A stretch of DNA of 64,000 nt from Octopus sinensis (lineage: Eukaryota). The notes below the pieces were generated by a model. The model worked only from the letters and a program-made list of their open reading frames with translations, had not been told where the DNA came from and did not search any database. Below, piece by piece: positions 4,059 to 63,710 of this stretch (positions are counted from its first letter, which is position 1; each line of letters starts with the position of its first letter). The DNA lies in NCBI RefSeq assembly GCF_006345805.1, contig NC_043025.1, positions 15,004,001-15,068,000 of the forward strand, in the 5' to 3' direction. The position numbers and the translations under genes were made by a program.

Positions 4059-4184
4059 TATATAGAAGGAGCTTCTACAGGACTAGAACTGTTTCATTCA
4101 AGAGAAATCTTCAGGAAGCTTCCTGAAGATTTCTCTTGAATGAAACAGTTCTAGTCCTGTAGAAGCTCCTTCTATATAATAAAT
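4053..4184. repeat. Perfect 132-bp palindrome with an HHR fold on each strand
   Basis: Exact reverse-complement symmetry about 4118/4119 (GGAAG|CTTCC). Confidence 0.95.
4117..4167 (+). ncRNA. Type I hammerhead ribozyme-like motif
   Basis: AGCTTC-CTGAAGA-tTTCtcttGAAt-GAAA-CAG..CTG-TA-GAAGCT; stem I 6 bp, stem II closed by U-U. Confidence 0.6.
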
Positions 4185-10547: not shown

Positions 10548-12760
10548 AAGGCCTGGAAAGCCTGGAGGTAGCAGGGAACTGTACCAGGTAGCCAAAAGGG
10601 AGGCTGGGCAGCAGTTATACATATTTGATGAGAGGGAGGAGGAGCTACAGACGTCGGACATAGAAGGTAGCTGGAAATTCCTATGGAACAGCTTGCTGAG
10701 TGCCACAGACCAAGTCTGCAGATGGTGCAAAGTCCCTTCCAGACCTAAAGTTATGTGGTGGTGGAATAGTACAGTAGACAAAGCCATTAGAGCAAAGAAA
10801 CAGGCCTGGAAAGCCTGGAGGTAGCAGGGAACTGTACCAGGTAGCCAAAAGGGAGGCTGGGCAGCAGTTATACATAGCCAAGAGTGAAGCAGAAAAGAAG
10901 AAGTTTGCCAATGTCCAGAGACGTGAGGACCAAAGAACTGAGGTATTTCGGATTGCAAGACAGTGTGTGAGAGAAAATTGTGATGTCACAGGAGAGAAAT
11001 GTGTCTGCATGGATGATGGTGCACTTGCTTTTAATGATTCTGAAAAGAAAGAGGCTTGGAGAAGCCATTATGAAAGACTGCTGAACGTGGAGAATAAATG
11101 GGAGGAGGAGAGCCTGCCAAATGTTGACCCTTAGAGGGACCAGCTATTTGAATAGACAACTCCCTGGTAGATAAAGCAATTAAAGGTATGAAGCCAGGAA
11201 AAGCCCCCGTGCCTATCAGGAATCACTGCTGAGATGCTTAAAACATCTGGTGGTGTGGGCGATGGCCTAGTCACCCGCATTGTAAACCAAGTAGTTCATG
11301 ATGGAGTCATACCCAATGACTGGCGTAGCAGCACCATAGTCAACTGCTACAAAAGTAGATGGGATGCAGTTTGGTTATGTGCCAGGTAGAAGCACCACTG
11401 ATGCCATATTCTTGGTGCAGCAACTGCAAGAGAAATACCTAGCTAAAGATAAACCCCTATACTTAGCTTTGTGGACTTGGAGAAAGCCTTTGACAGGCTC
11501 CCCCAATCCCTTATCTGGAGGGCAATGTGGAATCTGGGAATTAAAGAATGGTTAATAAGGGCTGTACAGGCCCTTTACAGAAAGGCCATTAGTAAGGTTA
11601 GGATTGGCAATGAGTATAGTAAAGAATTCTGGGTAGAATTAGGGGTCCACCAAGGATCATCCTCAGTCCCCTTTTATTCATCATAGTCCTCCAGGCAATA
11701 ACAGAGGAATTCAAGATGGGTTACCCCTGGGAGCTCCTCTATGCACTACCAGAGATAGAAAAGAAAATTTGTGTGTGGAATCTAGGTTTAGAATCAAAAG
11801 GCCTTAGAGTCAATGTAGCAAAGACCAAAGTTATAGTAAGTAGGAAGGCGAACTCATCACACACCCCTTCAGGTAGCTGGCCCTGCTTGATCTGTAGAAA
11901 AGGTGTCGGTAGAAACTCCATAAGATGTACCCAGTGTAAGCTATGGACACATAAGAGGTGCAGCAATATCAAAGGAAGGTTAACCAGGAAGATAGCTTTC
12001 TTGTGTGGCAGATGCAAAGCGACAGTAAACACCACAGATGCTCAAAAAGCAGATTCCATCACATTCCAGGGGGAGAAACTAGAAGTAGTTCATAGCTTCT
12101 GCTACATAAGTGACCAAGTTAGTAGTGGGGGTGGATGCTCAGAGAGTGTCACCACTAGAATCTGGGGTAGAAGTAGACCCAGGAAGACATGGGATGAGGT
12201 GGTGAAGCATGACCTTTGAACATTGGGTCTCACAGAGGCAACGATCAAAGACCAACACCTCTGGAGATATGCTGTGACTGTGAAGACCTGGCAAATAAAG
12301 TGAGTTCATGGCTGTTTCTTGCACCAGTTTTGCATATCCAACCCCAGCCCATTCAAAAGTACCTTGGATCGTAGGGCAACCTGCTGTGCTTGAGGAGATA
12401 TATTGAGTCAAGTACATCAACATCAAAATGAAAATCAAATGGAAATTGTAGTTGTGATACCCGTGCTGGTGGCATGTAAAAAGCACCGTCCGAATGTGGC
12501 CGATGCCAGCGCCGCCTTGACTGGCTTCCATAAAAGGCACCAACCAATCATGGCTGTTGCCAGTCTCCTCCGGCCCCTGTGCCGGTGGCATGTAAAAAGC
12601 ACCCACTACACTCCCCGAGTGGTTGGCATTAGGAAGGGCATCCAGCTGTAGAAACACTGCCAAATCAGACTGGAGCCTGGTGCAGCCCCTGGCTTCCCAG
12701 ACCCTGGTTGAACCGTCCAACCCATGCTAGCACGGAAAGCGGATGTTAAACGATGATGAT
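10548..12760 (+). mobile_element. RTE-clade LINE family 1, 5'-truncated, frameshifted, internally deleted
   Basis: MQFGYVPGRSTTDAIF, DLEKAFDR, GVHQGS, WPCLICRKG..CTQC..HKRC, GRSRPRKTWDEVV; 3' UTR ending ggatgttaaacgatgatgat. Confidence 0.9.
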
Positions 12761-15962: not shown

Positions 15963-16754
15963 AAACAACTGATGATATATTGACAAATGTTTGCAATTCT
16001 TATAATGGAAAGATAAAAGTATAGCATTAGTTTCATTCTCTAACCAGGCTTTGGTCGGCCTGAAGCCATAACTGGAAGGCACTTAATCAAGGTACCAGAG
16101 TGGGACTGAACCCAGGAGCATGTGGGAGGGAAGAGAACTTCTTACCACACAGTCACGTCTGCACCTACATAAAAAAAAATATATAATAAAACAGATTATC
16201 ATTTTTTGCAGATGGTATTTAGACTTATCCAGTCTAATTAGTGGGACACTAATTATTGATATATTTCGCAAATGATACAATTTGAAGCTAGACAACAATG
16301 GAATTCAGGGACAATTAAATAATAGCTTGGGTGGGGTGTAGTTTTTTATATTGTTTTATTATTTCTGCCATGTGTTGTGTTTTTTTTTTTTGTTGGCTGT
16401 GTGTAAAATGATAGATAACACTCACAAACGATTTACAGAAGCTTTATTTACTGGACAAAGTGTTTTCTGTGTTGGTCTTGGGATGAAGGATAAAAACAAT
16501 TTGCACAGACTAGGAGAGACAAACTCAGGGGTCTATGACAAGGTAGCTGGTATGTATCGATCTGTGACCAGGCCATCACGACTGGAGAAATACTGCATGA
16601 AATTCAAGATGGTAAATCTACACATTCCATCTGCACATCTGGAGGATGGACAAACAAGGATGGAGTTGTTAAAGCAAATGCCTCGACATTCTGAAGTTAC
16701 TGCAAAAAAACCCCCACCTTTTATAAGATTCATTAGAAGGGACCATTTAAGTCA

Positions 16755-17930
16755 GGCTGTCCCTGGGAGCTCCTCTGTGCTGATGACCTCGCTCTAATTG
16801 CTGAGTCACTGCCAGAACTAGAGACAAAGTTTAGGGTGTGGAAACAAGGTCTAGAATTGAAGGGCCTTAGGGTTAACATAACAAAAACCAAAGTCTTAGT
16901 AAGTAGGGAGGCAGGTAAATCACAAACCCCTTCAGGTAGATGGCCCTGCTCGATCTGTAGAAAGGCGTGGGTAGAAACTCTATATGATGTACCCGGTGTA
17001 AGCTATGGACATATAAATGGTACAGCAATATCAGAGGAAGGTTAACCGGGAAGATAGTCTTTGTGTGTGGCAGATGCAGAGGGGCAATAAACACTGAAGA
17101 TGTACAGAAAACAGATCCCATCACATTCCAGGGAAAGAAACTAGAAGTAGTTGATAGCTTCCGTTACTTAGGCAACCAAGCCTGTAGTGAGTGTGGATGC
17201 TCTGAGAATGTAGAAGCTAGAATAGGAATAGCCTGGACAAAGTTCAGGGAGCTCCTACCTCTGCTGGCAACTAAGAGCTTCTCGCTCGGAGTGAAAGGTA
17301 GAGTGTATGATGCATGTGTGTGGACTGCCATGCTACATGGCAGTGAAACATGGGCCATGACTGCTGAGGACATGCATAGGTTTGAAAGAAAGGAAGGCCA
17401 GTATGATCCGCTGGATGTGTAATGTCAGTGTGCATACATGACAGAGTGTGAGCACCCTGAGAGAAAACTTGGGCATAAGAAGCATCAAATGTGGGGTGCA
17501 AGAGAGACAGCTGCACTTGTTTAGTCATGTGTTACGTATGAATGAGGACAGCGGCATGAGGAAGTGCCACACCCTAACTGTGGATGGAACCTGTGTAACA
17601 GGTAGACCCAAGAAGACATGGGATGAGGTGGTGAAGCATGACCATCGCACGTTGGGCCTCACAGAGGCAATGACAGGAGACCAGGATCTTTGGAGATACG
17701 CTGCGATTGAGAAGATCCAGCAACTTAAGTGAGATCGCAGCCATGCATGTCCAGCTCAGTTAAGAGCACCCATGATGTGTCGGGTGATATGATATGCTTG
17801 AGAAGACCTGTTGACTCAAGTAAAACCAATATCATAGCTGTGGCCAGTATCTCCTGACTAACTCCCATGCTGGTGGCATATAAAAAGCACCATCCGAATG
17901 TGGTCGATGCCAGTACCCCATGATAAGCGT
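16755..17930 (+). mobile_element. RTE LINE family 1 fragment (RT 3' part to 3' UTR)
   Basis: PWELLCADDL, WPCSICRK, DSFRYLG, AMLHGSETW, GRPKKTWDEVV. Confidence 0.9.
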
Positions 17931-21290: not shown

Positions 21291-21932
21291 GCTTCTACCC
21301 GGAACAAAACCAAACTGCAAGCCAAAGATGAGATGCAGTTTGGTTTTGTGCCGGGTAGAAGCACCACTGATGTCATATTCCTGGTTCGACAACTGCTGGA
21401 GAAATAGCTTTTGTGGACTTGGAGAAAGCCTTTGACAGTGTCCCCCGATCCCTTATATGATGGGCAATGCGGAAACTGGAGATTAACGAATGGTTGATAA
21501 GGGCTGTACAGGCCCTTTACAGAAAGGCCGTTTGTAAGGTTAGGATTGGTAATATGTACAGTGAAGAATTCTGGGTAGATGTTGGCGTCCACCAAGGCTC
21601 AGCTCTCAGTCCCCTTCTATTCATCATAGTTCTCTAGGCAATAACAGAGGAATTCAAGATGGGTTGCCCCTGGGAGCTCCTCTATGCTGATGACTTAGCC
21701 CTCATAGAAGAATCACTACCAGAACTAGAGAAGAAATTTCGGGTGTGGAAGCTAGGTTTAGAATCAAGAGGCCTTAGAGTCAATGTAGCAAAGACCAAAG
21801 TTCTAGTAAGTAGGAAGGTGAACATATCACACACCTCTTCAGGTAGGTGGCCCTGCTCGATCTGTAGGAAAGGTGTAGGTAGAAACTCCATAAGATGTAC
21901 CCAGTGTAAGCTATGGATGCATAAGAGGTGCG
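21291..21932 (+). mobile_element. RTE LINE family 1 RT fragment with 5' fold-back
   Basis: MQFGFVPGRSTTD, PWELLYADDLALI, WPCSICRKGVGRNSIRCTQC. Confidence 0.9.
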
Positions 21933-22565
21933 AAGAGATGGAAGTTCACAGGTGCTAAATCTAGCGAATAGGAGCAGGTGAGAAAGCGAGACCATGTTGT
22001 TTTCTGTGAGAAACTCATGAGTGAGGAGAACTTGGTGACTGAGTGCCTTGTGGTTGTCAAGAATCTAATTCTTTGCTCTTCACAGATCCAATTGCTTTCA
22101 CTGAATGCCCTCCTTCACACACTTCAAATCACCTCCATAGAATTCTCAATTGATGGTCTGGTCCTGGGGAATGAATTCTTGATGCACCTTCCACATTTCC
22201 AGGGGTCGCTCTTGTGGCACGTCTTCCAAAGATGCTCTCTCACTTTTGAAGCACTTGTGCTGCTTAAAACATTACGTACAAACCATTGCCTCATCGCTTG
22301 AAGCTTGCTCAATATCTCTGTAGCAGACTTTCCAAGTTTAATGCAAAATTTCACATTGGTTTTTTGTTCTAATTTCCTGCCCATGACAAAAGCACAGACT
22401 ACACAACACAGACACGATCCCAAGACCACAAATTTCACAACTTGCAAAGTAAACACAACAATGTCACTCTGCCCACTGCCCCACGAAGGTCACTGCTAGC
22501 CTCTCACTGTGCGTGCAACCCTCTGCACTACAGAACTAGTTTTGGAACTTTTTAATACCACCTCG
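21932..22565 (-). mobile_element. Internally deleted mariner element
   Basis: TA|CGAGGTGGTATTAAAAAGTTCC end; LEQKTNVKFCIKLGKSATE HTH; PYSLDLAP motif near 21940-21975. Confidence 0.8.
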
Positions 22566-31368: not shown

Positions 31369-31537
31369 ACCACACACACACACACACATATATAGATATA
31401 TATATAATATATATTATATATACTATATATATATATATATATATATAAATATTATTAGAGACAAACCACTATTTTGCAAAACAAACAAGGAAAGACTTAA
31501 TCAATACATAAAATTTAAATAATAGTCAAAAAAACCC

Positions 31538-31580
31538 CCACTACAATCGTTTCTTGTCTTGATCGACAATCTTCAGGTGG
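31538..31580 (-). ncRNA. Minimal type I hammerhead ribozyme
   Basis: Minus: CCAC-CTGAAGA-TTGTCgatcaaGACAA-GAAA-CGATTG-TA-GTGG. Confidence 0.75.
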
Positions 31581-32293
31581 ACTTCCAATCTAAAAAATCA
31601 AAATTTAAAAAAATAAAAAATAATAATTTTAAATAATTAAAGTATAAATGAAAAAATATAATAGTATATAATCCAATATAACCTATATATAATCCATATC
31701 GAAATATAGACAAATTACCACGAATTCCCCTAAAAAAAACCATGATAAAACAAACTCATAAAAACATATAACGATAAAACTCCCTTTGCTAAACTCTATA
31801 ACAAACCTATAAAGTAATCCCCCTAACCTAAACATTCACACACAAATACACACACGTAAACCACAGACTCACGACTTATTGTTGAATGTGTATATGGGTT
31901 TGTTATTTAGGTTTGGGATGTATGTGTTAATTTGTCTGTGTGGGGAGGGAGGGGTTTTGGTGTTTTTGAGGTTTATAAGTTAGTATAGGTATGTGTATAA
32001 TCGTGAGTCTGTGTTTACGTGTGTGTATTTGTGTGTGAATGTTAGGTTAGGGGGATTACTTTATAGGTTTGTTATAGAGTTTTAGCAAAGGGAGATTTTA
32101 TCGTTATATGTTTTTATGAGTTTTGTTTTATCATGGTTTTTTTTAGGGAATTCGTGGTAATTTGTCTATTTTTCGATATGGTTATATATAATGTTATATT
32201 TGGATTATATACTTATATTTTTTCATTTATACTTTAATTATTTAAAATTATTATTTTTTTATTTTTAAAATTTTGATTTTTTAGATTGGAAGT

Positions 32294-32335
32294 CCACCTG
32301 AAGATTGTCGATCAGACAAGAAACGATTGTAGTGG
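32294..32335 (+). ncRNA. Minimal type I hammerhead ribozyme
   Basis: CCAC-CTGAAGA-TTGTCgatcaGACAA-GAAA-CGATTG-TA-GTGG; canonical core, all stems pair. Confidence 0.75.
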
Positions 32336-32511
32336 CGGTTTTTTGACTATTTATTAAAATTTTATGTATTGATTAAGTCTTTCCTTGTTTGTTTGCAAAT
32401 AGTGGTTTTGTCTCTAATAATATTTTATATAATATTTACTAATAAAATTGGATTTAATCCTAAATCTGATTTTTTTTTCCCTGTAAATTGGATTTATTCC
32501 CTAATATTTAT

Positions 32512-43562: not shown

Positions 43563-44225
43563 ACACCTGACTCTACACCAATCTATAGGTATTATTCTGT
43601 CCTAAACTTATCAAATTGACTTTGTCCATATTAAATGGTAGCTTTTACTGTGAATATTGTTGGTGGAGTTTGGGTGGGTAGTTTTGCTAATAAGCACACA
43701 TGCACTGGTTATGTTTCTTTCTCTTCTATTAAGGATTTTGCCTAATATTTTCTGTTTCTTCTTTTTTTTGCTGAAATGGTGTCCCTCCTATGAAGGATCT
43801 CTAGAGAAATGTTACTTGACAGGGTGCATAGCTAGGGGATAGGTGAGGAGGTCTTTCCAGGCTGACTTGCTACATTTCTGCAGTGAGGGGTCACATAATG
43901 ATGGTTGCTTCTCCCAGTAAATTAAAAAAAGTCCGTTTCCTTGTTTGATTTTATGTTTCCGTTTCTCGTTGTGTTCTACATTTATTTGTGGTGACCTGTA
44001 CTCATATATATATATATATGTATGTATATATATACATATAGATGTAAGTACGTAGATATATGTATGTATGTATGTATGTATGCATATGTTTTATTTATTA
44101 AATTGTTATTATATATATATATATATATACAGTCAATCCAAACATGAACAAGCAAGAAAAAACGTGAGGACGTGGAATAAGTATAGTGTTATTGGACGCT
44201 CAGGAAAGGAAGGAAAAAAAAGAGG

Positions 44226-44260
44226 ATTTCACATTTCGAGCGGAGCTCTTCATCAGAAAT
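44226..44260 (-). ncRNA. Degenerate minimal HHR-like motif
   Basis: Minus: ATTT-CTGATGA-aGAGCtccGCTC-GAAA-TG-TG-AAAT; G at the cleavage position suggests inactivity. Confidence 0.45.
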
Positions 44261-44479
44261 ATAGAAAAAGTCCAAAGAAGGGAAGACAGAGAGAGAAAAG
44301 CGCCAACGATACACAAGCGGTCACATATTGAAATGACCAGAAGGGAATGGGTGAAGAAAATGGATGAATAGATGGATAATTCTCTTCTTCCAAAAAGTAG
44401 AAGGACCGAAAATTGGGGAAGGCACCGGAGAATGAAAATACAAAGATCCCGAAGGATTGTAAACTGCAGACAGATAAGG

Positions 44480-44812
44480 TAATGGAACACTCTGAGCCTG
44501 ACATTGTTATCTTTCGACAAAACATCTCCTAAATGTATAATGGGGATAGAGCAAGTCCCTTTGATACCAGAGTGAAAGAGAAAGAACAGGAAACACTTGT
44601 TGAGTATAATGATTAGCAATACAAGGATTGGACAGCAAGAATGGTAAGAAAGAATGGTAAGGTGGTGCCACTTGATATCAGAGAGCTGGGTCCATAAGCA
44701 GAATTTCGAAAAAAAGGAGGAACATCTTGGTTGTGACATACACACCTCTGTTATGCAGAAAGCCTGTTTATTTGGGACAGCAAGAATCCTAAGAGAGATG
44801 GTGAATCCCTAA
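44480..44812 (+). pseudogene. R4/Dong-like (restriction-like endonuclease) retrotransposon C-terminal remnant
   Basis: EPDIVI ... MQKACLFGTARILREM. Confidence 0.55.
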
Positions 44813-48414: not shown

Positions 48415-51400
48415 ACCGCCAATGACTGAAAGATGGGAAAAAGATGGGATTACGGCTTGAGGCAGCCTGCGGTTAAATATTGTAGAGAGAAGATAGGAAG
48501 ATAAATCAAGTTTTGGCGAAGGCTTGAAAGTATCCTAAAAAAGGTTAAATTTTCGTAACAGTGTATGAATAAACGTATTAACAACGAATAAAAAATATAG
48601 TAATAATAAATTTTTTAAGAACTTGCTGCGGTCATCGAGCGGGAGTTGAAATTGAAGAAGAAAGTAGTTGAACTGGAATTTAAATTGCAGAATCGTAATA
48701 GTAATAGTAATGGCGGTTTTCAAGTTTTAGCATATGAAGAAGAAGAGGAGGAAAAAAGAAGACCGCCAATGACTGAAAGATGGGAAAAAGATGGGATTAC
48801 GGCTTGAGGCAGCCTGCGGTTAATATTGTAGAGAGAGAGATAGGAAGATAAATCAAGTTATGGCGAAGGCTTGAAAGTATCCTAAAAAAGGTTAAATTTT
48901 CGTAACAGTGTATGAATAAACGTATTAACAACGAATAAAAAATATAGTAAGATAAATTTTTTAAGAACTTGCTGCGGTCATCGAGCGGGAGTTGAAATTG
49001 AAGAAGAAAGTAGTTGAACTGGGAATTTAAATTGCAGAATCGTAATAGTAATAGTAATGGCGGTTTTCAAGTTTTAGCATATGAAGAAGAAGAGGAGGAA
49101 AAAAAAAAGAAGACCGCCAATGACTGAAAGATGGGAAAAAGATGGGATTACGGCTTGAGGCAGCCTGCGGTTAAATATTGTAGAGAGAGAGATAGGAAGA
49201 TAAATCAAGTTATGGCGAAGGCTTGAAAGTATCCTAAAAAAGGTTAAATTTTCGTAACAGTGTATGAATAAACGTATTAACAACGATAAAAAAAAAAATA
49301 TATTAAGATAAATTTTTTAAGAACTTGCTGCGGTCATCGAGCGGGAGTTGAAATTGAAGAAGAAAGTAGTTGAACTGGGAATTTAAATTGCAGAATCGTA
49401 ATAGTAATAGTAATGGCGGTTTTCAAGTTTTAGCATATGAAGAAGAAGAGGAGGAAAAAAAAAAAAGAAGACCGCCAATGACTGAAAGATGGGAAAAAGA
49501 TGGGATTACGGCTTGAGGCAGCCTGCGGTTAAATATTGTAGAGAGAGAGATAGGAAGATAAATCAAGTTATGGCGAAGGCTTGAAAGTATCCTAAAAAAA
49601 GGTTAAATTTTCGTAACAGTGTATGAATAAACGTATTAACAACGAATAAAAAAATATAGTAAGATAAATTTTTTAAGAACTTGCTGCGGTCATCGAGCGG
49701 GAGTTGAAATTGAAGAAGAAAGTAGTTGAACTGGGAATTTAAATTGCAGAATCGTAATAGTAATAGTAATGGCGGTTTTCAAGTTTTAGCATATGAAGAA
49801 GAAGAGGAGGAAAAAAGAAGACCGCCAATGACTGAAAGATGGGAAAAAGATGGGATTACGGCTTGAGGCAGCCTGCGGTTAAATATTGTAGAGAGAGAGA
49901 TAGGAAGATAAATCAAGTTATGGCGAAGGCTTGAAAGTATCCTAAAAAAAGGTTAAATTTTCGTAACAGTGTATGAATAAACGTATTAACAACGAATAAA
50001 AAATATAGTAAGATAAATTTTTTAAGAACTTGCTGCGGTCATCGAGCGGGAGTTGAAATTGAAGAAGAAAGTAGTTGAACTGGGAATTTAAATTGCAGAA
50101 TCGTATAGTAATAGTAATGGCGGTTTTCAAGTTTTAGCATATGAAGAAGAAGAGGAGGAAAAAGAAGACCGCCAATGACTGAAAGATGGAAAAAGATGGG
50201 ATTACGGCTTGAGGCAGCCTGCGGTTAAATATTGTAGAGAGAGAGATAGAAGATAAATCAAGTTATGGCGAAGGCTTGAAAGTATCCTAAAAAAAGGTTA
50301 AATTTTCGTAACAGTGTATGAATAAACGTATTAACAACGAATAAAAAAAAAAAATATAGTAAGATAAATTTTTAAGAACTTGCTGCGGTCATCGAGCGGG
50401 AGTTGAAATTGAAGAAGAAAGTAGTTGAACTGGGAATTTAAATTGCAGAATCGTAATAGTAATAGTAATGGCGGTTTTCAAGTTTTAGCATATGAAGAAG
50501 AAGAGGAGGAAAAAAGAAGACCGCCAATGACTGAAAGATGGGAAAAAGATGGGATTACGGCTTGAGGCAGCCTGCGGTTAAATATTGTAGAGAGAGAGAT
50601 AGGAAGATAAATCAAGTTATGGCGAAGGCTTGAAAGTATCCTAAAAAAAGGTTAAATTTTCGTAACAGTGTATGAATAAACGTATTAACAACGAATAAAA
50701 AATATAGTAAGATAAATTTTTTAAGAACTTGCTGCGGTCATCGAGCGGGAGTTGAAATTGAAGAAGAAAGTAGTTGAACTGGGAATTTAAATTGCAGAAT
50801 CGTAATAGTAATAGTAATGGCGGTTTTCAAGTTTTAGCATATGAAGAAGAAGAGGAGGAAAAAAGAAGACCGCCAATGACTGAAAGATGGGAAAAAGATG
50901 GGATTACGGCTTGAGGCAGCCTGCGGTTAAATATTGTAGAGAGAGAGATAGGAAGATAAATCAAGTTATGGCGAAGGCTTGAAAGTATCCTAAAAAAGGT
51001 TAAAAAATTTTCGTAACAGTGTATGAATAAACGTATTAACAACGAATAAAAAAAAAATATAGTAAGATAAATTTTTTAAGAACTTGCTGCGGTCATCGAG
51101 CGGGAGTTGAATTGAAGAAGAAAGTAGTTGAACTGGGAATTTAAATTGCAGAATCGTAATAGTAATAGTAATGGCGGTTTTCAAGTTTTAGCAATTAAAA
51201 GAAGAGAGGAAAAAAAAAAAGAAGACCGCCAATGACTGAAAGATGGGAAAAAGATGGATTACGGCTTGAGGCAGCCTGCGGTTAAATATTGTAGAGAGAG
51301 AGATAGGAAGATAAATCAAGTTATGGCGAGGCTTGAAAGTATCCTAAAAAAAGGTTAAATTTTCGTAACAGTGTATGAATAAACGTATTAACCCGAAAAA

Positions 51401-52711
51401 AAAAAAAAATATAGTAAGATAATTTTTTAAGAACTTGCTGCGGTCATCGAGCGGGAGTTGAAATTGAAGAAGAAAGTAGTTGAACTGGGAATTTAAATTG
51501 CAGAATCGTAATAGTAATAGTAATGGCGGTTTTCAAGTTTTAGCATATGAAGAAGAAGAGGAGGAAAAAAAAAAGAAGACCGCCAATGACTGAAAGATGG
51601 GAAAAAGATGGATTACGGCTTGAGGCACCTGCGGTTAAATATTGTAGAGAGAGAGATAGGAAGATAAATCAAGTTATGGCGAAGGCTTGAAGTATCCTAA
51701 AAAAGGGTAAATTTTCGTAACAGTGTATGAAAAAACGTATTAACAACGAATAAAAAATATAGTAAGATAAATTTTTTTTAAGAACTTGCTGCGGTCATCG
51801 AGCGGGAGTTGAATTGAAGAAGAAAGTAGTTGAACTGGGAATTTAAATTGCAGAATCGTAATAGTAATAGTAATGGCGGTTTTCAAGTTTTAGCATATGA
51901 AGAAGAAGAGGAGGAAAAAAGAAGACCGCCATGACTGAAAGATGGGAAAAAGATGGGATTACGGCTTGAGGCAGCCTGCGGTTAAATATTGTAGAGAGAG
52001 AGATAGGAAGATAAATCAAGTTATGGCGAAGGCTTGAAAGTATCCTAAAAAAGGTTAAATTTTCGTAACAGTGTATGAATAAACGTATTAACAACGAATA
52101 AAAAATATAGTAAGATAAATTTTTTAAGAACTTGCTGCGGTCATCGAGCGGGAGTTGAAATTGAAGAAGAAAGTAGTTGAACTGGGAATTTAAATTGCAG
52201 AATCGTAATAGTAATAGTAATGGCGGTTTTCAAGTTTTAGCATATGAAGAAGAAGAGGAGGAAAAAAAAAAAGACCGCCAATGACTGAAAGATGGGAAAA
52301 AGATGGGATTACGGCTTGAGGCAGCCTGCGGTTAAATATTGTAGAGAGAGAGATAGGAAGATAAATCAAGTTATGGCGAAGGCTTGAAAGTATCCTAAAA
52401 AAGGTTAAATTTTCGTAACAGTGTATGAATAAACGTATTACAACGAATAAAAAAAAATATAGTAAGATAAATTTTTTAAGAACTTGCTGCGGTCATCGAG
52501 CGGGAGTTGAAATTGAAGAAGAAAGTAGTTGAACTGGGAATTTAAATTGCAGAATCGTAATAGTAATAGTAATGGCGGTTTTCAAGTTTTAGCATATGAA
52601 GAAGAAGAGGAGGAAAAAGAAGACCGCCAATGACTGAAAGATGGGAAAAAGATGGGATTACGGCTTGAGGCAGCCTGCGGTTAAATATTGTAGAGAGAGA
52701 GATAGGAAGAT
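48415..52711. repeat. Highly homogeneous ~350-bp tandem array, ~12.3 units
   Basis: accgccaatgactgaaag at ~48415, 48762, 49113, 49471, 49821, 50168, 50520, 50868, 51225, 51579, 51925, 52274, 52623; differences mostly homopolymer indels. Confidence 0.97.
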
Positions 52712-52727
52712 ATATATATAATTTATA

Positions 52728-53597: not shown

Positions 53598-54752
53598 AAA
53601 GTTTTTTACGACGAATATAAGACCTATATCCAAGTAGCAGAAAGATCGCCCAAAAGTGTATATAGATATTTAAATGTATTTATATATTCATCTATACACA
53701 GATGTATGTATAATGTGTGTGTATATATTTCCATAGCGGTACCTTTCACTCCATACAAGTTTTTTAGGACGAATATAAGATCTAAAGTATATACAAGTAG
53801 CAGAAAGATCGCCCAAAAGTGTATATAGATATTTAAATGTATTTATATATATTCATCTATGCACACATGTATGTATAACGTGTGTGTATATATTCCATAG
53901 AGGTAACCATTCACTCCATACAAAGTTTTTTAGGACAAATAAGATCTAAAGTTATCTCTAAGAAAAGAAAGATCGCCCAAAAGTGTTATAGATATAAATG
54001 TATTTTATATTCATCTATACACAGATGTATGTATCAATGTGTGTGTATATATTTCCATACACGTAACCATTCACTCCGCACAAAGTTTTTTAGGACGAAA
54101 ATAAGATCTAAAGTATCTCTAAGTAGCACAGAGATCGCCCAAAAGTGTATAATGATATTTAAATGTATTTATATATATTCATCTATACACACATGTATGT
54201 ATAATGTGCATGTATATATTTCCATAGAGGTAACCATTCACTCCATACAAAGTTTTTTAGGACGAAAATAAGATCTAAGTTATCTCTAAGAAAAGAAAGA
54301 TCGCCAAAGTGTATAAGATATTTAAATGTATTTATATATTCATCTATACACAGATGTATGTATAATGTGTGTGTATATATTTCCATACACGTAACCATTC
54401 ACTCCGCACAAAGTTTTTTAGGACGAAAATAAGATCTAAAGTTATCTCTAAGTAGCACAGAGATCGCCAAAGTGTATATAGATATTTAAATGTATTTATA
54501 TATTCATCTATACACACATGTATGTATAATGTGCATGTATATATTTCCATAGAGGTAACCATTCACTCCATACAAAGTTTTTTAGGACGAAAATAAGATC
54601 TAAAGTTATCTAAGAAAAGAAAGAGCCCAAGTGTATATAGATATTTAAATGTATTTATATATTCATCTATACACACATGTATGTATAATGTGCGTGTATA
54701 TATTTCCATAGAGATAACCATTCAATCCATACAAAGTTTTTTAGGACGAAAA
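53598..54752. repeat. ~163-bp tandem array, 7 units, alternating variants
   Basis: gatcgccc-like anchor at 53644, 53807, 53971, 54133, 54299, 54462, 54623. Confidence 0.9.
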
Positions 54753-54984
54753 TATTTATATATAAAAGAAAGGTTGTGTGTCTCTCTACTCCGATTTAGA
54801 TTCCTAACTACTCCCACATTTTGCAATGCAGTTTAACCAAAACCGGGTATCTTATAGTCGTGATTCATATCGAGCCCTTCTGGGTATTAGCGCGCGTCTA
54901 CGATGAGTCTATGATTTTACAAATAATTTACCATCATTTTTTTCCATTTTAATGCATATTTTTTTAAATAAAGGGAAGTAACTC

Positions 54985-55495: not shown

Positions 55496-55729
55496 AAACT
55501 TATATCAATATTTGCCTGAATAATCATCATAATTCAGTGCAATCATTAACAGTACTTTCAAGCAATTCAGCCCCGAGCAACGCCGGGCAATTCTGCTAGT
55601 TTATATATATATATATATATATTATAAGATCAGCAACAATTTAGATTCAAATGAATATGGTACTTAATTTAGATGCACCAGAATTTTGTATGGTGTTACC
55701 CATAAAAATATGCGGGGTGATTATAATAA

Positions 55730-55985
55730 AAAAATAAGCAACAAGAATGAATCTGGTAATTTAGTACAATTGTTTCATACTACAACATTTTATTAAAAGC
55801 TCTAAATATTCCCTAAAAAGTTATTAATTGATTTTAAAACTTTTATATTATTGGAAAACCTACATAAATTAGCTGAAGATTACTCAGCATCTTAAATCTG
55901 CTGTAATATTTACAGCTTTTAATAAAATGTTGTAGTATGAAACAATTGTACTAAATTACCGGATTCATTCTTGTTGCTTATTTTT
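55730..55985. repeat. ~72-bp-arm inverted repeat with HHR
   Basis: aaaaataagcaacaagaatgaatc...aaaagct / agctttt...gattcattcttgttgcttatttt. Confidence 0.9.
55869..55954 (+). ncRNA. Type I HHR with extended stem II
   Basis: TTAG-CTGAAGA-tTACTCAGCAT...ATGTTGtAGTAt-GAAA-CAATTG-TA-CTAA. Confidence 0.6.
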
Positions 55986-56691
55986 GTATATATATATATA
56001 TGTCAGTGGCGGCTGCAGCACTCAAGCTGTTCGGGCTTGGCCCAAGTATAAATTTAGTAAAGTGAACATATATTTGCAAGATGATTTAGTTTCTTCCAAT
56101 ACTGACTTCAAGTATATAATTGCAACCAATAACTCAGGCACCTTTTATTGAGCCTGATCACAGTTTCTTTATTTTCATTGAGTGTCTGGCGGTCATCTTA
56201 GAGGTGCCCTGTTTCGAAAAATATCATTCATAGAAGACGTCGTTCACACATGGGCCTGACTCAGGGCTCAGAAGTTACACCCTGAGTTGTTGTCTATAAT
56301 CGTAAAAATTAAAAGTAATTCAAATTCATGTTTTCTTGAAGCAATAAATCTCTATAGAGATTAGGATTTAAATTCCAATCTATGAGAAGTTTCCGTTCTA
56401 CAATATTCTCAAAGGAACAAAAAAAATTATGCAGCAACTTGGGCTAATACAAACGAGCCTGGTAGGGGTAAAAAATTAACTGGGGTCACTTGTCAAGAGC
56501 AAAAGTGACAGTAATATTGCTGTCGTTTGTTCTGAATTCCAACTGGATCTGGTCAAAGAGGCATGGAAGAGAATTTTAAGAATATTTTTTGATAAACTCT
56601 CTGGGTTATTTGTGATGCCTGTGAATGAAAAGACATTGAAATTTTATAACTTATTGGCAGGAGATTCAATTGTTATCATACTACTGGACAT

Positions 56692-56738
56692 CTGTCACTG
56701 ATGAACCCACAGCAGGGTGAAATTACATGATCTGACAG
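56692..56738 (+). ncRNA. Canonical type I hammerhead ribozyme
   Basis: CTGTCA-CTGATGA-ACCCacagcaGGGT-GAAA-TTacatGA-TC-TGACAG; stems of 6, 4 and 3 bp. Confidence 0.85.
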
Positions 56739-57036
56739 TTCTTGCTGCCATAGCAGATGATCCTCATCTGTCAACGATATAAATATGAGTGTTTTATGCA
56801 TCACAAGTCCATATGAGAGATTCCCTCGTGGTAAATAACACAGAATTGTCTGTTCTAACAAAACATCCTCATTAAGTTGGATATAAAGATTGCCATTTTG
56901 TATTAATAGTATTTCTGCCATTATTTATTACTTTTTGATTAGTCCACTGGCTAAATACTACACTGGTAGCTGAACAGATGCTGAGATTCTATACATCACT
57001 GATGGGAGATGCAACTGTTATTGTGCTGCAGGGCAC

Positions 57037-57083
57037 CTACCACTGATGAACCCATAGCAGAGTGAAATCATGAGATTTGGCAG
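57037..57083 (+). ncRNA. Second, decayed HHR copy 345 nt downstream
   Basis: CTACCA-CTGATGA-ACCCatagcaGAGT-GAAA-TCatgaGA-TT-TGGCAG. Confidence 0.7.
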
Positions 57084-57805
57084 TTCTGGTGGCCGTAGGA
57101 TAGCAACAATATAATGGCAATTGCCTTTATGCTCCATGCATCCATATGAGGCATCCTCAAAGCAAGTAACACAGTATTTGCTGTTCTAATACAACCTCTA
57201 TATTAAGTTGGAGATTAAGATTCCCTTTTTGGACTTCTACTGCTTCTGTCACTGTTAATCATTTTTCCAAAGGCATGATTTGCCTGTCAGTCAATTGGGG
57301 ATTCGAATGAATTGGTTACAACACTATGGTACCTTGGATCTGTGATACCTTAACCATCAAAGAGGGGCAGGACAAAAAAGGTGGGGGTCCAGTAGTTATG
57401 ACTGGGATGCAGTCTGGGGCCACTCCGTGTGTAAAGAATTAAGGGCCAAAACACTTGCATGAGAGGGACTGCTTCTCTGAAGACCCTCTCTTGATCAGCA
57501 CTCCTTACAGATTCTTACTGCTGTGTGTGTGTGTGTGTGTGTGTGTATACACACACACATATACATATATATAGGAATGTATTTGTGTATGTATGTATGT
57601 ATGCATATATGTGTGTGTGTGCATGTGTGTATATCTATCTATCTATCTATATGATATATTAGTAAAATTCAAATTCATATCTGAATATATATATATATAT
57701 ATATATACCTATATACATACATACAAGCATACATGCATTATCTTTTACTTACAACAATCATTAGACTGCAGCCATGCTGGGGCACTGTCTTGAAGATACT
57801 TGTTT

Positions 57806-60804: not shown

Positions 60805-62365
60805 AGCTCAGGCAAATAGGGAATTGGCCAAAAGTAGGCCATTGTACTTAACCTTCATTGACCTGGGGAAAGCTTTTGACAGAGCCCCCTGTTCTGTTAT
60901 ATGGTGGTCTCTAAGGAAGTTAAGAGTAGAGGATTGGCTTGTTAGAGCTGTACATGCCATGTAGAGTGGTGCTGTCAGTAAGGTGAGAGTCAGCCATGAA
61001 TACAGTGATGAATTTAGTGTACAGGTAGGGGTTTGCCAAGGCTCTGTTCTCAGCCCACTCTTATTCATTATAGAGTGCTACTTTGGCTTGTGATCTACAA
61101 GGGAGATTACTTTTTAGTTTACTTTGTGTTAATGTTACTTTCTGTGTGATCTACAGAAGCAAATGTACTTTGGTGGGTGATCTATATGCTCATTTTAATT
61201 ATGATTATGTTTTCTTATTAAAATAATTTTCTTATTAAAAGAATTTTGAAAAAATTCATTTACAACGCTAAGTATGTACAAAATAATTAAAAAAGTAGCC
61301 TAAAGTAATTTGCCTTGTAGATCCCATGCCAAAATAGTACCCATTATAGCCCTCCAGGTCATAACAGAAGAATTCAAAACTGGATTCCCATGGAAACTAG
61401 TTTATGCTGATGACCTCACTCTTATTGCAGAATTGGAGGAGAAATTCCAGGTATGGAAACTAAACCTGGAATCAAAAGGCCTTAAAATTAACCAAAGTTG
61501 TTAGCAAAAAAGAAGATAAAACTTTCTTTCCATCAGGTAAATGGCCCTGCTCATTGTGTAGGAAAGGAGTTGGAAGAAATTCCATTCACTGCAGCCAGTG
61601 GACACATAAGAGTGGCAGTGGAATCCCAGATAGATTAAAAGATAAAGTTGTCTTCGTATGTGGCAGATGTTCAGGAACAATAAGCCCTAAGACACATGGG
61701 GCTTGGACTCTCTCTCAAATGCCCAGGAGGCTCTCTTGAGGTTGTGGATGGTTTCTGTTACCTAGGTGACCAAATTAGCAATGGTGGAGGATGTTCTGAA
61801 AGTATTGTTTCTAGAATAAGAATTGGGTGGCGGAAGTTGGACTCTCTTTCAGAGTGAAAGGTAGACTGTGTGAAGCTTGTGTATGAATGGCCGTACCCCA
61901 TGGTAGTGAGACATGGGCTCTAAGTGAAGAAGACATGTAGACTGGTAAGAAATGAAGGCCGTATGCTGCGTTAGATGTGCAACATCAGTGTGCAGACATA
62001 TTGTGCATAAGAGGGATGAAATGCAGCATGCAAGAGAGAAGAGTGCATTTGGTTTGGACGAGGGATGCGTATGAATGAGGACAGCTGTGTAAAGAAGTGC
62101 TGATCACTGAAAATGGATGGTCCCTGCAGAAGGGGGAGACCCAGGAAGACATGGGATGAACTTGCAAGGCCCTGTAAAATACATGTGAAAAACACTGATG
62201 CTGACCAATCAAAAAAAACCCCAATACACTCTGTAAAGTGGTTGCCATTTTAAAGGGCTTCCAGCCATAGAAACCGTGTCAAAACAGGCAAGGGAGCTTG
62301 GTACAGTTCCTGGCCTTGCCAATGCTTGCCAAACTGTCCAACCAATGCCAGCATTGAGAACAGAC
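60805..62365 (+). mobile_element. Old RTE LINE family 1 copy, interrupted at ~61072-61340
   Basis: FIDLGKAFDR, PWKLVYADDL, CRKGVGRNSIHC, GRPRKTWDE. Confidence 0.85.
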
Positions 62366-63050: not shown

Positions 63051-63710
63051 TGTGGTGGCAGTGGTGGTGGCCAAGGCAGCGGCAGAGCTGGTGTGGGTGG
63101 CGGTTGGTGGTGGCAGTGGTGGTGGCCAAGGCAGCGGCAGAGCTGGTGTGGGTGGCGGTTGGTGGTGGCAGTGGTGGTGGCCAAGGCAGCGGCAGAGCTG
63201 GTGTGGGTGGCGGTTGGTGGTGGCAGTGGTGGTGGCCAAGGCAGCGGCAGAGCTGGTGTGGGTGGCGGTTGGTGGTGGCAGTGGTGGTGGCCGGCAGCGG
63301 CAGAGCTGTGTGGGTGGCGGTTGTGGTGGCAGGGTTGTGGCCAAGCACGGCAGAGCTGGTGTGGGTGGCGGTTGGTGTGGTAGTGGTGGTGGCCAAGCAG
63401 CGGCAGAGCTGGTGTGGGTGGCGGTTGGTGGTGGCAGTGGTGGTGGCCAAGGCAGCGGCAGAGCTGGTGTGGGTGGCGGTTGGTGGTGGCAGTGGTGGTG
63501 GCCAAGGCAGCGGCAGAGCTGGTGTGGGTGGCGGTTGGTGGTGGCAGTGGTGGTGGCCAAGGCAGCGGCAGAGCTGGTGTGGGTGGCGGTTGGTGGTGGC
63601 AGTGGTGGTGGCCAAGGCAGCGGCAGAGCTGGTGTGGGTGGCGGTTGGTGGTGGCAGTGGTGGTGGCCAAGGCAGCGGCAGAGCTGGTGTGGGTGGCGGT
63701 TGGTGGTGGT
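63051..63710. repeat. G-rich 55-bp minisatellite, ~12 units
   Basis: ccaaggcagcggcagagctgg at 63071, 63126, 63181, 63236 etc. Confidence 0.95.

Follow-up and report, generated by a model that had tools for sequence, protein, structure and literature searches.

An old two-unit hammerhead retrozyme insertion in the Octopus sinensis genome, probably copied by Penelope-like machinery

In a 64,000-nucleotide stretch of the Octopus sinensis genome (NCBI RefSeq assembly GCF_006345805.1, contig NC_043025.1, positions 15,004,001 to 15,068,000 of the forward strand; hereafter the window), we identified a fossil animal non-LTR retrozyme. It is most probably an ancient insertion comprising two units of a non-coding hammerhead repeat family, likely copied by the reverse transcriptase (RT) and endonuclease of a Penelope-like retrotransposon (PLE) and now likely decaying. 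Elements of this kind are already known. Animal non-LTR retrozymes have been characterized as tandem type I hammerhead repeats of 150-450 bp, including units of ~350-390 bp in mussel and Rtz331/353 in axolotl, and PLEs were named in the same work as their likely movers (Cervera and de la Pena 2020, PMC7229834). In Xenopus, non-LTR retrozymes were argued to be non-autonomous PLE derivatives on the basis of co-occurrence and pseudo-LTR kinship (Li, Clavereau, Pollet 2026, bioRxiv 10.64898/2026.07.22.740005).

Structure of the dimer and its insertion site

Sequence inspection places two type I hammerhead motifs (HHRs) on the + strand, HHR1 at 56692-56738 and HHR2 at 57037-57083, with the 345-nt spacing given in the initial annotation. 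The homology that it had noted downstream of both motifs is real and wider than described, since the two units also align over ~110 nt upstream of each HHR; the element therefore spans ~56578-57266 (~690 bp). Its parts and surroundings are as follows.

56578-56922, + strand: unit 1, 345 nt; profile match 56582-56938, 320 bits; family coverage begins at ~56580
56923-57266, + strand: unit 2, with a 13-nt deletion after HHR2; profile match 56917-57273, 285 bits
56733-57077, + strand: predicted HHR-to-HHR monomer, 345 nt if both predicted sites were cut
57232-57266, + strand: terminal 'tail', the ~30-40 nt between the family's two preferred 3' ends, mapped approximately in the window
56534-56577, + strand: left part of the host repeat, 79-91% identical to loci L131-L134, where it runs straight into the right-flank homologue
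57267-57367, + strand: right part of the host repeat, extending to ~57520 in L131

Units 1 and 2 share 67.7% identity over 337 columns, and both alignment and repeat search indicate that the last ~12 nt of unit 2 repeat the unit start. The dimer is non-coding, its longest stop-free stretch being 82 codons. As a circle, the 345-nt monomer (GC 37%) has an MFE of -71.0 kcal/mol, with a z of -0.11 against 60 shuffles; a special fold was rejected, the monomer folding no better than its shuffles. TRF, from which the Xenopus retrozyme pipeline starts (10.64898/2026.07.22.740005), did not report the dimer in the window at our settings, which differ from those of that preprint. Three other tandem arrays lie nearby: a young one at 48415-52712 (350-bp unit, 12.3 copies, 96% matches, strong G + A skew, no hammerhead by descriptor), one at 53598-54754 (164-bp unit, 7.1 copies) and one at 63052-63709 (55-bp unit, 12.1 copies).

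The flanks of the dimer are the two halves of a host repeat, which is unclassified and has short frames only; neither is an LTR. A search with the right flank recovered four paralogues of this repeat (L131-L134), and in 4/4 the site is empty, the left-flank homologue directly joining the right-flank homologue. Contigs from two runs (X1, X5) connect 56576 to 57305 via 39 letters similar to the beginning of the right flank. Because the whole 690 bp is missing from all four paralogues, we read the dimer as a single ~690-bp insertion that interrupted an older repeat at a T-rich site. At that site the flank matches overlap by ~6 nt in L131, in decayed sequence, and a target-site duplication of ~6 nt is possible. 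Just upstream of the host repeat lies a further high-copy repeat (56020-56500, matched by many contigs from all four runs), preceded by inverted arms of 85 nt at 55726-55989 (96% complementary, 94 nt apart), a MITE-like or other palindromic insertion.

The two hammerhead motifs

Both motifs carry CUGANGA, GAAA and an NUH site, and their helices have the sizes of a canonical type I hammerhead (helix I ~6 bp, helix II 4 bp, and a short helix III with a palindromic loop).

56692-56738, + strand: HHR1, canonical type I; AUC site; predicted cut after 56732
57037-57083, + strand: HHR2, core intact; AUU site; predicted cut after 57077
56680-56748, + strand: extended helix I of HHR1, in which 56680-56688 pairs with 56740-56748 to close the loop-1 bulge; 5/9 pairs left

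The description of HHR1 as a textbook type I motif holds: its core (CUGAUGA and GAAA) is intact, and all 13/13 inner pairs form (helix I 6/6, helix II 4/4, helix III 3/3, one of them U.G). HHR2 was said to keep the core and most stem pairs, and it does, with 11/13 pairs (helix I 5/6, A57039.C57081 mismatched; helix II 3/4, C57052.A57061 mismatched; helix III 3/3). It lacks the loop-1 U that is present in 75/82 other segments of the family. AUC has been ranked as the best cleavage-site class and AUU as a slower one (PMC8879150). The distal part of helix I is found across the family in the same register, eight of its nine pairs at 71-90% and the outermost at 56%.

A search with a structural descriptor gave 6 motifs for the window, including HHR1 and HHR2, and none for any of 30 block-shuffled versions. 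Rfam gave no match at gathering score anywhere in the 64-kb window. In an E-value-threshold search of 56400-57500, both HHRs matched Hammerhead_HH9 (RF02275, clan CL00010) across the whole model, HHR1 with 25.5 bits (E 0.00088) and HHR2 with 22.1 bits (E 0.01), below the gathering score of 52. They share with this family the type I topology, an extended helix I and a full-length alignment, but score less than half the gathering threshold and are copies within a mobile element. HH9 proper consists of isolated conserved vertebrate motifs. The predicted fold energies are -7.3 kcal/mol for HHR1 and +1.9 kcal/mol for HHR2, and the folds of the isolated HHRs do not go beyond those of shuffles.

HHR1 is not singular within its family. 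Its core and inner stems are equalled by 15/79 complete motifs elsewhere, and it departs from the column majority at 5 places, all compatible with the fold. It has diverged at 5/47 positions, compared with 61/277 in the rest of its unit (Fisher p 0.08), in a comparison for which the motif had been chosen for its textbook look. The helix III strands of HHR1 and HHR2 could pair with one another at 9/10 places; this was rejected as a sign of selection for a double hammerhead, as 58% of unrelated pairs reach 9/10. The initial annotation had further pointed to a compatible change in stem III (TT..GA to TC..GA). Its form is as described, but it is no evidence of compensation or selection, because C is the family's usual letter (79/92 other segments) and the T of copy 1 is a lone transition to a wobble pair.

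Hammerheads of other kinds occur in the same window. A near-perfect ~115-bp head-to-head palindrome at 4064-4180, set in (TA)n, has a minimal-type hammerhead in each arm (core 4114 on the - strand, 4123 on the + strand) and appears to be a PLE-type stump of another family. At ~31450-32430, between (TA)n tracts, a head-to-head inverted repeat with ~490-nt arms represents a third hammerhead family; its motifs, at 31576 on the - strand and 32298 on the + strand, are also of minimal type, with a 6-bp helix II and a short helix I. A CUGAUGA-hairpin-GAAA motif at 44234-44256 (- strand) fails the descriptor and lies inside a 202-codon stop-free frame (44200-44808, - strand), possibly the end of a decayed PLE. 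The minimal PLE hammerhead has been described with a helix II of 7-8 bp, a bulged base and a short helix I (PMC4209133). In contrast, that of the dimer's family has a 4-bp helix II without a bulge, and a helix I of 6 bp plus a distal stem.

An old, dispersed family

With the dimer as query, the genome yielded 1391 first-look candidates, of which 40 were scored. A sister subfamily with a period of ~357-361 nt gave 3024 first-look candidates, with tandems of up to three units; the hammerhead core is kept in few of its examples (L143:4155-4380, L175-L199). Removal of redundancy among 99 loci left 71, one of which is the window locus. As the top-scoring matches of each search, these over-represent long and tandem copies. 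One locus, L088, was left out of later analyses as a duplicate of L090.

Unrelated segments of the family are ~73% alike (median of 7214 pairs). Over 107 segments, the distance from the column majority ranges from 11-27%, and the window units stand at 20% and 22%. The tree is star-like (mean terminal branch 0.16, internal 0.017), and substitutions comprise 3601 transitions versus 1853 transversions. In the palindromic loop III, CG is split into CG, TG and CA states (columns C52/T30 and G59/A29), as expected from CpG decay. No young subfamily was found with an exact 35-place pattern (9 places), a CpG-intact pattern (43) or DNA searches (68-87% identity); the near-identical pairs L088/L090, L017/L024 and L035/L036 look like segmental duplicates. 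The family is thus old, dispersed and multi-copy, and the window copy is likely to be decaying.

The family's age bears directly on the proposal that this locus releases a 345-nt monomer able to circularise. Because the family is old, HHR2 has two mismatches, an AUU site and no loop-1 U, and the distal helix of HHR1 is broken (5/9), release of such an RNA today is unsupported, and we consider present-day circular RNA from the window locus unlikely. No RNA data set was listed for 56580-57280. Contigs from three runs guessed to be RNA are mostly <95% alike to the dimer, that is, relatives of it; contigs of this kind cannot show strand, ends or circles.

Past selection on the ribozyme

The family as a whole retains traces of selection on its ribozyme. 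Among matches to a pattern that leaves stem II pairs 2-4 free (30 of 43 used), 69/90 cells at these pairs are paired, versus 46.4 after shuffling (0/10000), with A-U, G-C and C-G swaps. An alignment of 52 rows, those free of indels among 77 HHR segments and belonging to the nearer group, has a covariation score of 0.195 versus 0.158 shuffled (0/500); its 6 pairs with two-sided change are not above shuffles (109/500). Both shuffles ignore the relatedness of the copies. Stem cells across the family are paired at 86.8%, versus 26-42% in slid registers. Loci found with a hammerhead-free query have core columns conserved at 0.907 versus 0.824 elsewhere (p 0.013), and the core is kept in 10/24 of their complete motifs, as expected for dead copies. 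Because stem II covaries across subfamilies, the ribozyme was under selection while the family spread, in its active past.

Penelope-type insertion marks

The initial annotation had likened the pair to a retrozyme dimer, and the wider family agrees: tandem 345-nt units with a type I HHR are joined by related tandem copies at 47/71 loci. In overlapping classes, the 71 loci comprise 47 tandem, 29 with a head-to-head inverted copy, 0 tail-to-tail and 11 single, and the longest array measures 829 nt (~2.4 units). The 3' ends are fixed and the 5' ends ragged. The sequence before the unit start belongs to a second unit, to a unit in inverted orientation or to unrelated DNA; in the 13 chains whose first position is the unit start, nothing upstream is shared apart from inverted unit copies or one other repeat.

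The 3' ends cluster at model ~320-345 and ~355-376, and the hammerhead cut site is at model ~164, which puts the two ends ~155 and ~190 nt downstream of it. Ends so far from the cut site imply that what was copied was not a cleaved linear monomer read from its terminus. Among the 29 head-to-head loci, exactly one arm carries the ~30-40-nt tail in 22, both arms in 1 and neither in 6 (14.1 expected with one; permutation p 0.0034, with the tail threshold, model 350, picked after the ends had been seen). Of the short arms, 14/22 stop within model 319-344, ~30-50 model positions before the full 3' end. The window copy itself has no inverted arm, and the inversion and tail marks belong to the family level.

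The same marks have been published for PLEs: copies truncated at the 5' end, partially repeated in tandem and preceded at the 5' end by an inverted, likewise 5'-truncated copy, with a 30-40-bp tail that is frequently confined to one end (PMC8557442). The PLE tail has been traced to two RT start sites within the RNA, downstream of the hammerhead, and called unique to PLEs; ribozyme cleavage was not needed for PLE insertion in vitro (PMC11167929). On this agreement, the family was likely moved by Penelope-like retrotransposons. Compared with the EN+ PLEs for which these marks were reported (Craig et al. 2021, PMC8557442; PAc of Anolis, Frangieh et al. 2024, PMC11167929), the family shows the same 5' truncation, partial tandems, inverted 5' copy and 30-40-nt tail at one end, and its insertions likewise end downstream of the hammerhead, off its cut site. 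Unlike them, it has no RT/GIY-YIG frame: it moves like a PLE yet is not a PLE.

Search for a coding partner

Potential sources of the enzymes are present in the same genome. PLEs gave 5029 first-look candidates, and intact frames with RT and GIY-YIG (775-883 codons; L135-L138; Pfam RVT_1 and GIY-YIG) have many near-identical copies by score. The unit profile matched nothing significantly in 30 GIY-YIG loci and 8 longer PLE loci. Used as tblastn queries, the PLE frames matched 2/71 family loci (L008, L031), 600-950 nt from the unit, with the GIY-YIG remnant in L031 separated from the unit by another repeat; they matched 0 of 55 further loci, some of which overlap earlier ones. No single RT/GIY-YIG open reading frame adjoins any unit in the 71 + 55 loci. 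An autonomous partner that shares sequence with the unit was therefore not found among the PLE and GIY-YIG loci searched. A minimal hammerhead lies at 6521 in L138, antisense to the PLE frame there; the descriptor found none near L135-L137. Within the window, broken RT fragments at 11623-12300, 16746-17729, 21638-21943 and 61340-62169 resemble the L135 frame (RVT_1, weak PHD match).

Origin of the dimer and alternative explanations

In a 77-tip tree, units are sisters in 6/10 tandem neighbour pairs (support 0.21-0.90), and same-locus pairs have more derived sites in common than other pairs (median 0.041 vs 0.030). Because of these two observations, most tandems of the family appear to come from one template. 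The window units are among the least alike of the tandem pairs (67.7% vs a median of 74.6%), and their shared derived sites (0.036 per site) do not exceed those of random pairs. The tree does not place them as sisters; their joint clade is not rejected (p-AU 0.31). One template followed by long decay and two templates in one event are both possible origins. A heterodimer of two subfamilies was hinted at by a quick tree and was not established, given the same p-AU of 0.31. The divergent, non-sister units could also suggest a SINE-like monomer duplicated locally, or two separate adjacent insertions, without any multimeric or circular template. We give this idea hardly any credence: the junction is the same end-to-start join as at other tandem loci, all 690 bp are missing from 4/4 host-repeat paralogues, units elsewhere are sisters in 6/10 tandem pairs (if weakly supported), and a local duplication would make units more alike than unrelated copies, not less.

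Two further explanations turn on what the family is and whether this copy still works. Insertion marks identical to those of PLEs, the abundance of PLEs with RT and GIY-YIG (5029 first-look candidates) and the other PLE-type hammerhead palindromes within the window would all be accounted for if the units were pseudo-LTR stumps of an autonomous PLE whose coding body is rare, lost or decayed, the dimer being a partial tandem of 5'-truncated copies. This is improbable, as copies longer than one unit continue into another unit and never into a frame, none of the 71 + 55 loci has a PLE frame next to a unit, and the hammerhead is canonical rather than of the minimal PLE type. It is very unlikely that the locus is still active or co-opted, with + strand transcription and cleavage at both sites (perhaps as a double hammerhead) yielding a 345-nt circle, or with HHR1 alone processing a host transcript. 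The intact core and inner stems of HHR1, its AUC site of the best class (PMC8879150), the intact core of HHR2 and helix III strands pairable at 9/10 places would suit such activity. However, 15/79 other complete copies are equally intact, 58% of unrelated pairs reach the same helix III pairing, HHR1 retains 5/9 distal pairs, HHR2 combines two stem mismatches with an AUU site and loss of the loop-1 U, shuffled sequences fold as well as the monomer, and among Xenopus genomic dimers only 1/9 cut in vitro (10.64898/2026.07.22.740005).

A model for the spread of the family

For the reading that we prefer, an old retrozyme insertion copied by PLE enzymes, the following course can be proposed. Active source arrays would have been transcribed, and their hammerheads, probably acting as dimers through the palindromic helix III, would have cleaved the transcripts into 345-nt monomers, available for circularisation by a host ligase. 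A PLE protein may then have started to reverse-transcribe the RNA at a position within the unit, ~155 or ~190 nt downstream of the cut site, and gone on upstream for more than one unit length, the template being circular or multimeric. Once inserted, the copies would have accumulated mutations freely. Transcription, self-cleavage and circularisation by ligase are taken over from the retrozyme model (PMC7229834), and the internal PLE-driven start from the pattern of ends. A circle and an uncut multimeric transcript fit the data alike as template and are not told apart by them.

Relation to known retrozymes and significance

The family resembles animal non-LTR retrozymes in its ~345-nt tandem units of 37% GC, in having one canonical type I HHR per unit and no frame, and in being dispersed and high in copy number alongside co-existing PLEs. 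It differs in being old and degenerate (~73% alike), in the shortness of its arrays (<=~2.4 units at 71 loci) and in being known here from DNA alone; its head-to-head inversions and one-sided tail are absent from the retrozyme descriptions drawn on here (PMC7229834). With the Xenopus retrozymes (10.64898/2026.07.22.740005), as far as their account is used here, it shares a proposed dependence on PLEs and the presence of monomers, dimers and multimers in one family. It differs in that this dependence is argued from how the insertions are built and that no related PLE turned up. Neither the family nor inversion and tail counts for retrozymes turned up in the article listings and main texts searched; the family could already have an entry in a repeat library such as Repbase or Dfam, perhaps under Penelope. 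Retrozymes are known in invertebrates, including molluscs, and hammerhead repeats are common in this genome, with two more sets in the window. The locus itself is ordinary and probably inert.

What the family may add concerns the mover of animal retrozymes, which is still argued from co-occurrence and kinship; here, insertion ends carry the PLE signature away from the cut site. Tentatively, and with somewhat more doubt than conviction, we suggest that the family preserves the life cycle of a retrozyme in frozen form: a 345-nt hammerhead circle that encodes no protein and whose insertions bear every Penelope mark (an inverted head, a tail on one side, priming within the unit 155-190 nt past the cut site and more than two turns of read-through), unaccompanied by any related coding element. 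The same count of ends, inversions and tails can be applied to any genome with retrozymes, and the family's RNA is a candidate for a test of PLE trans-mobilisation. If the suggestion is true, the family would show directly, from genomic sequence and ahead of any published account, that animal retrozymes are mobilised in trans by PLE machinery acting on circular or multimeric RNA, and PLE recognition would depend on something other than shared pseudo-LTR sequence.
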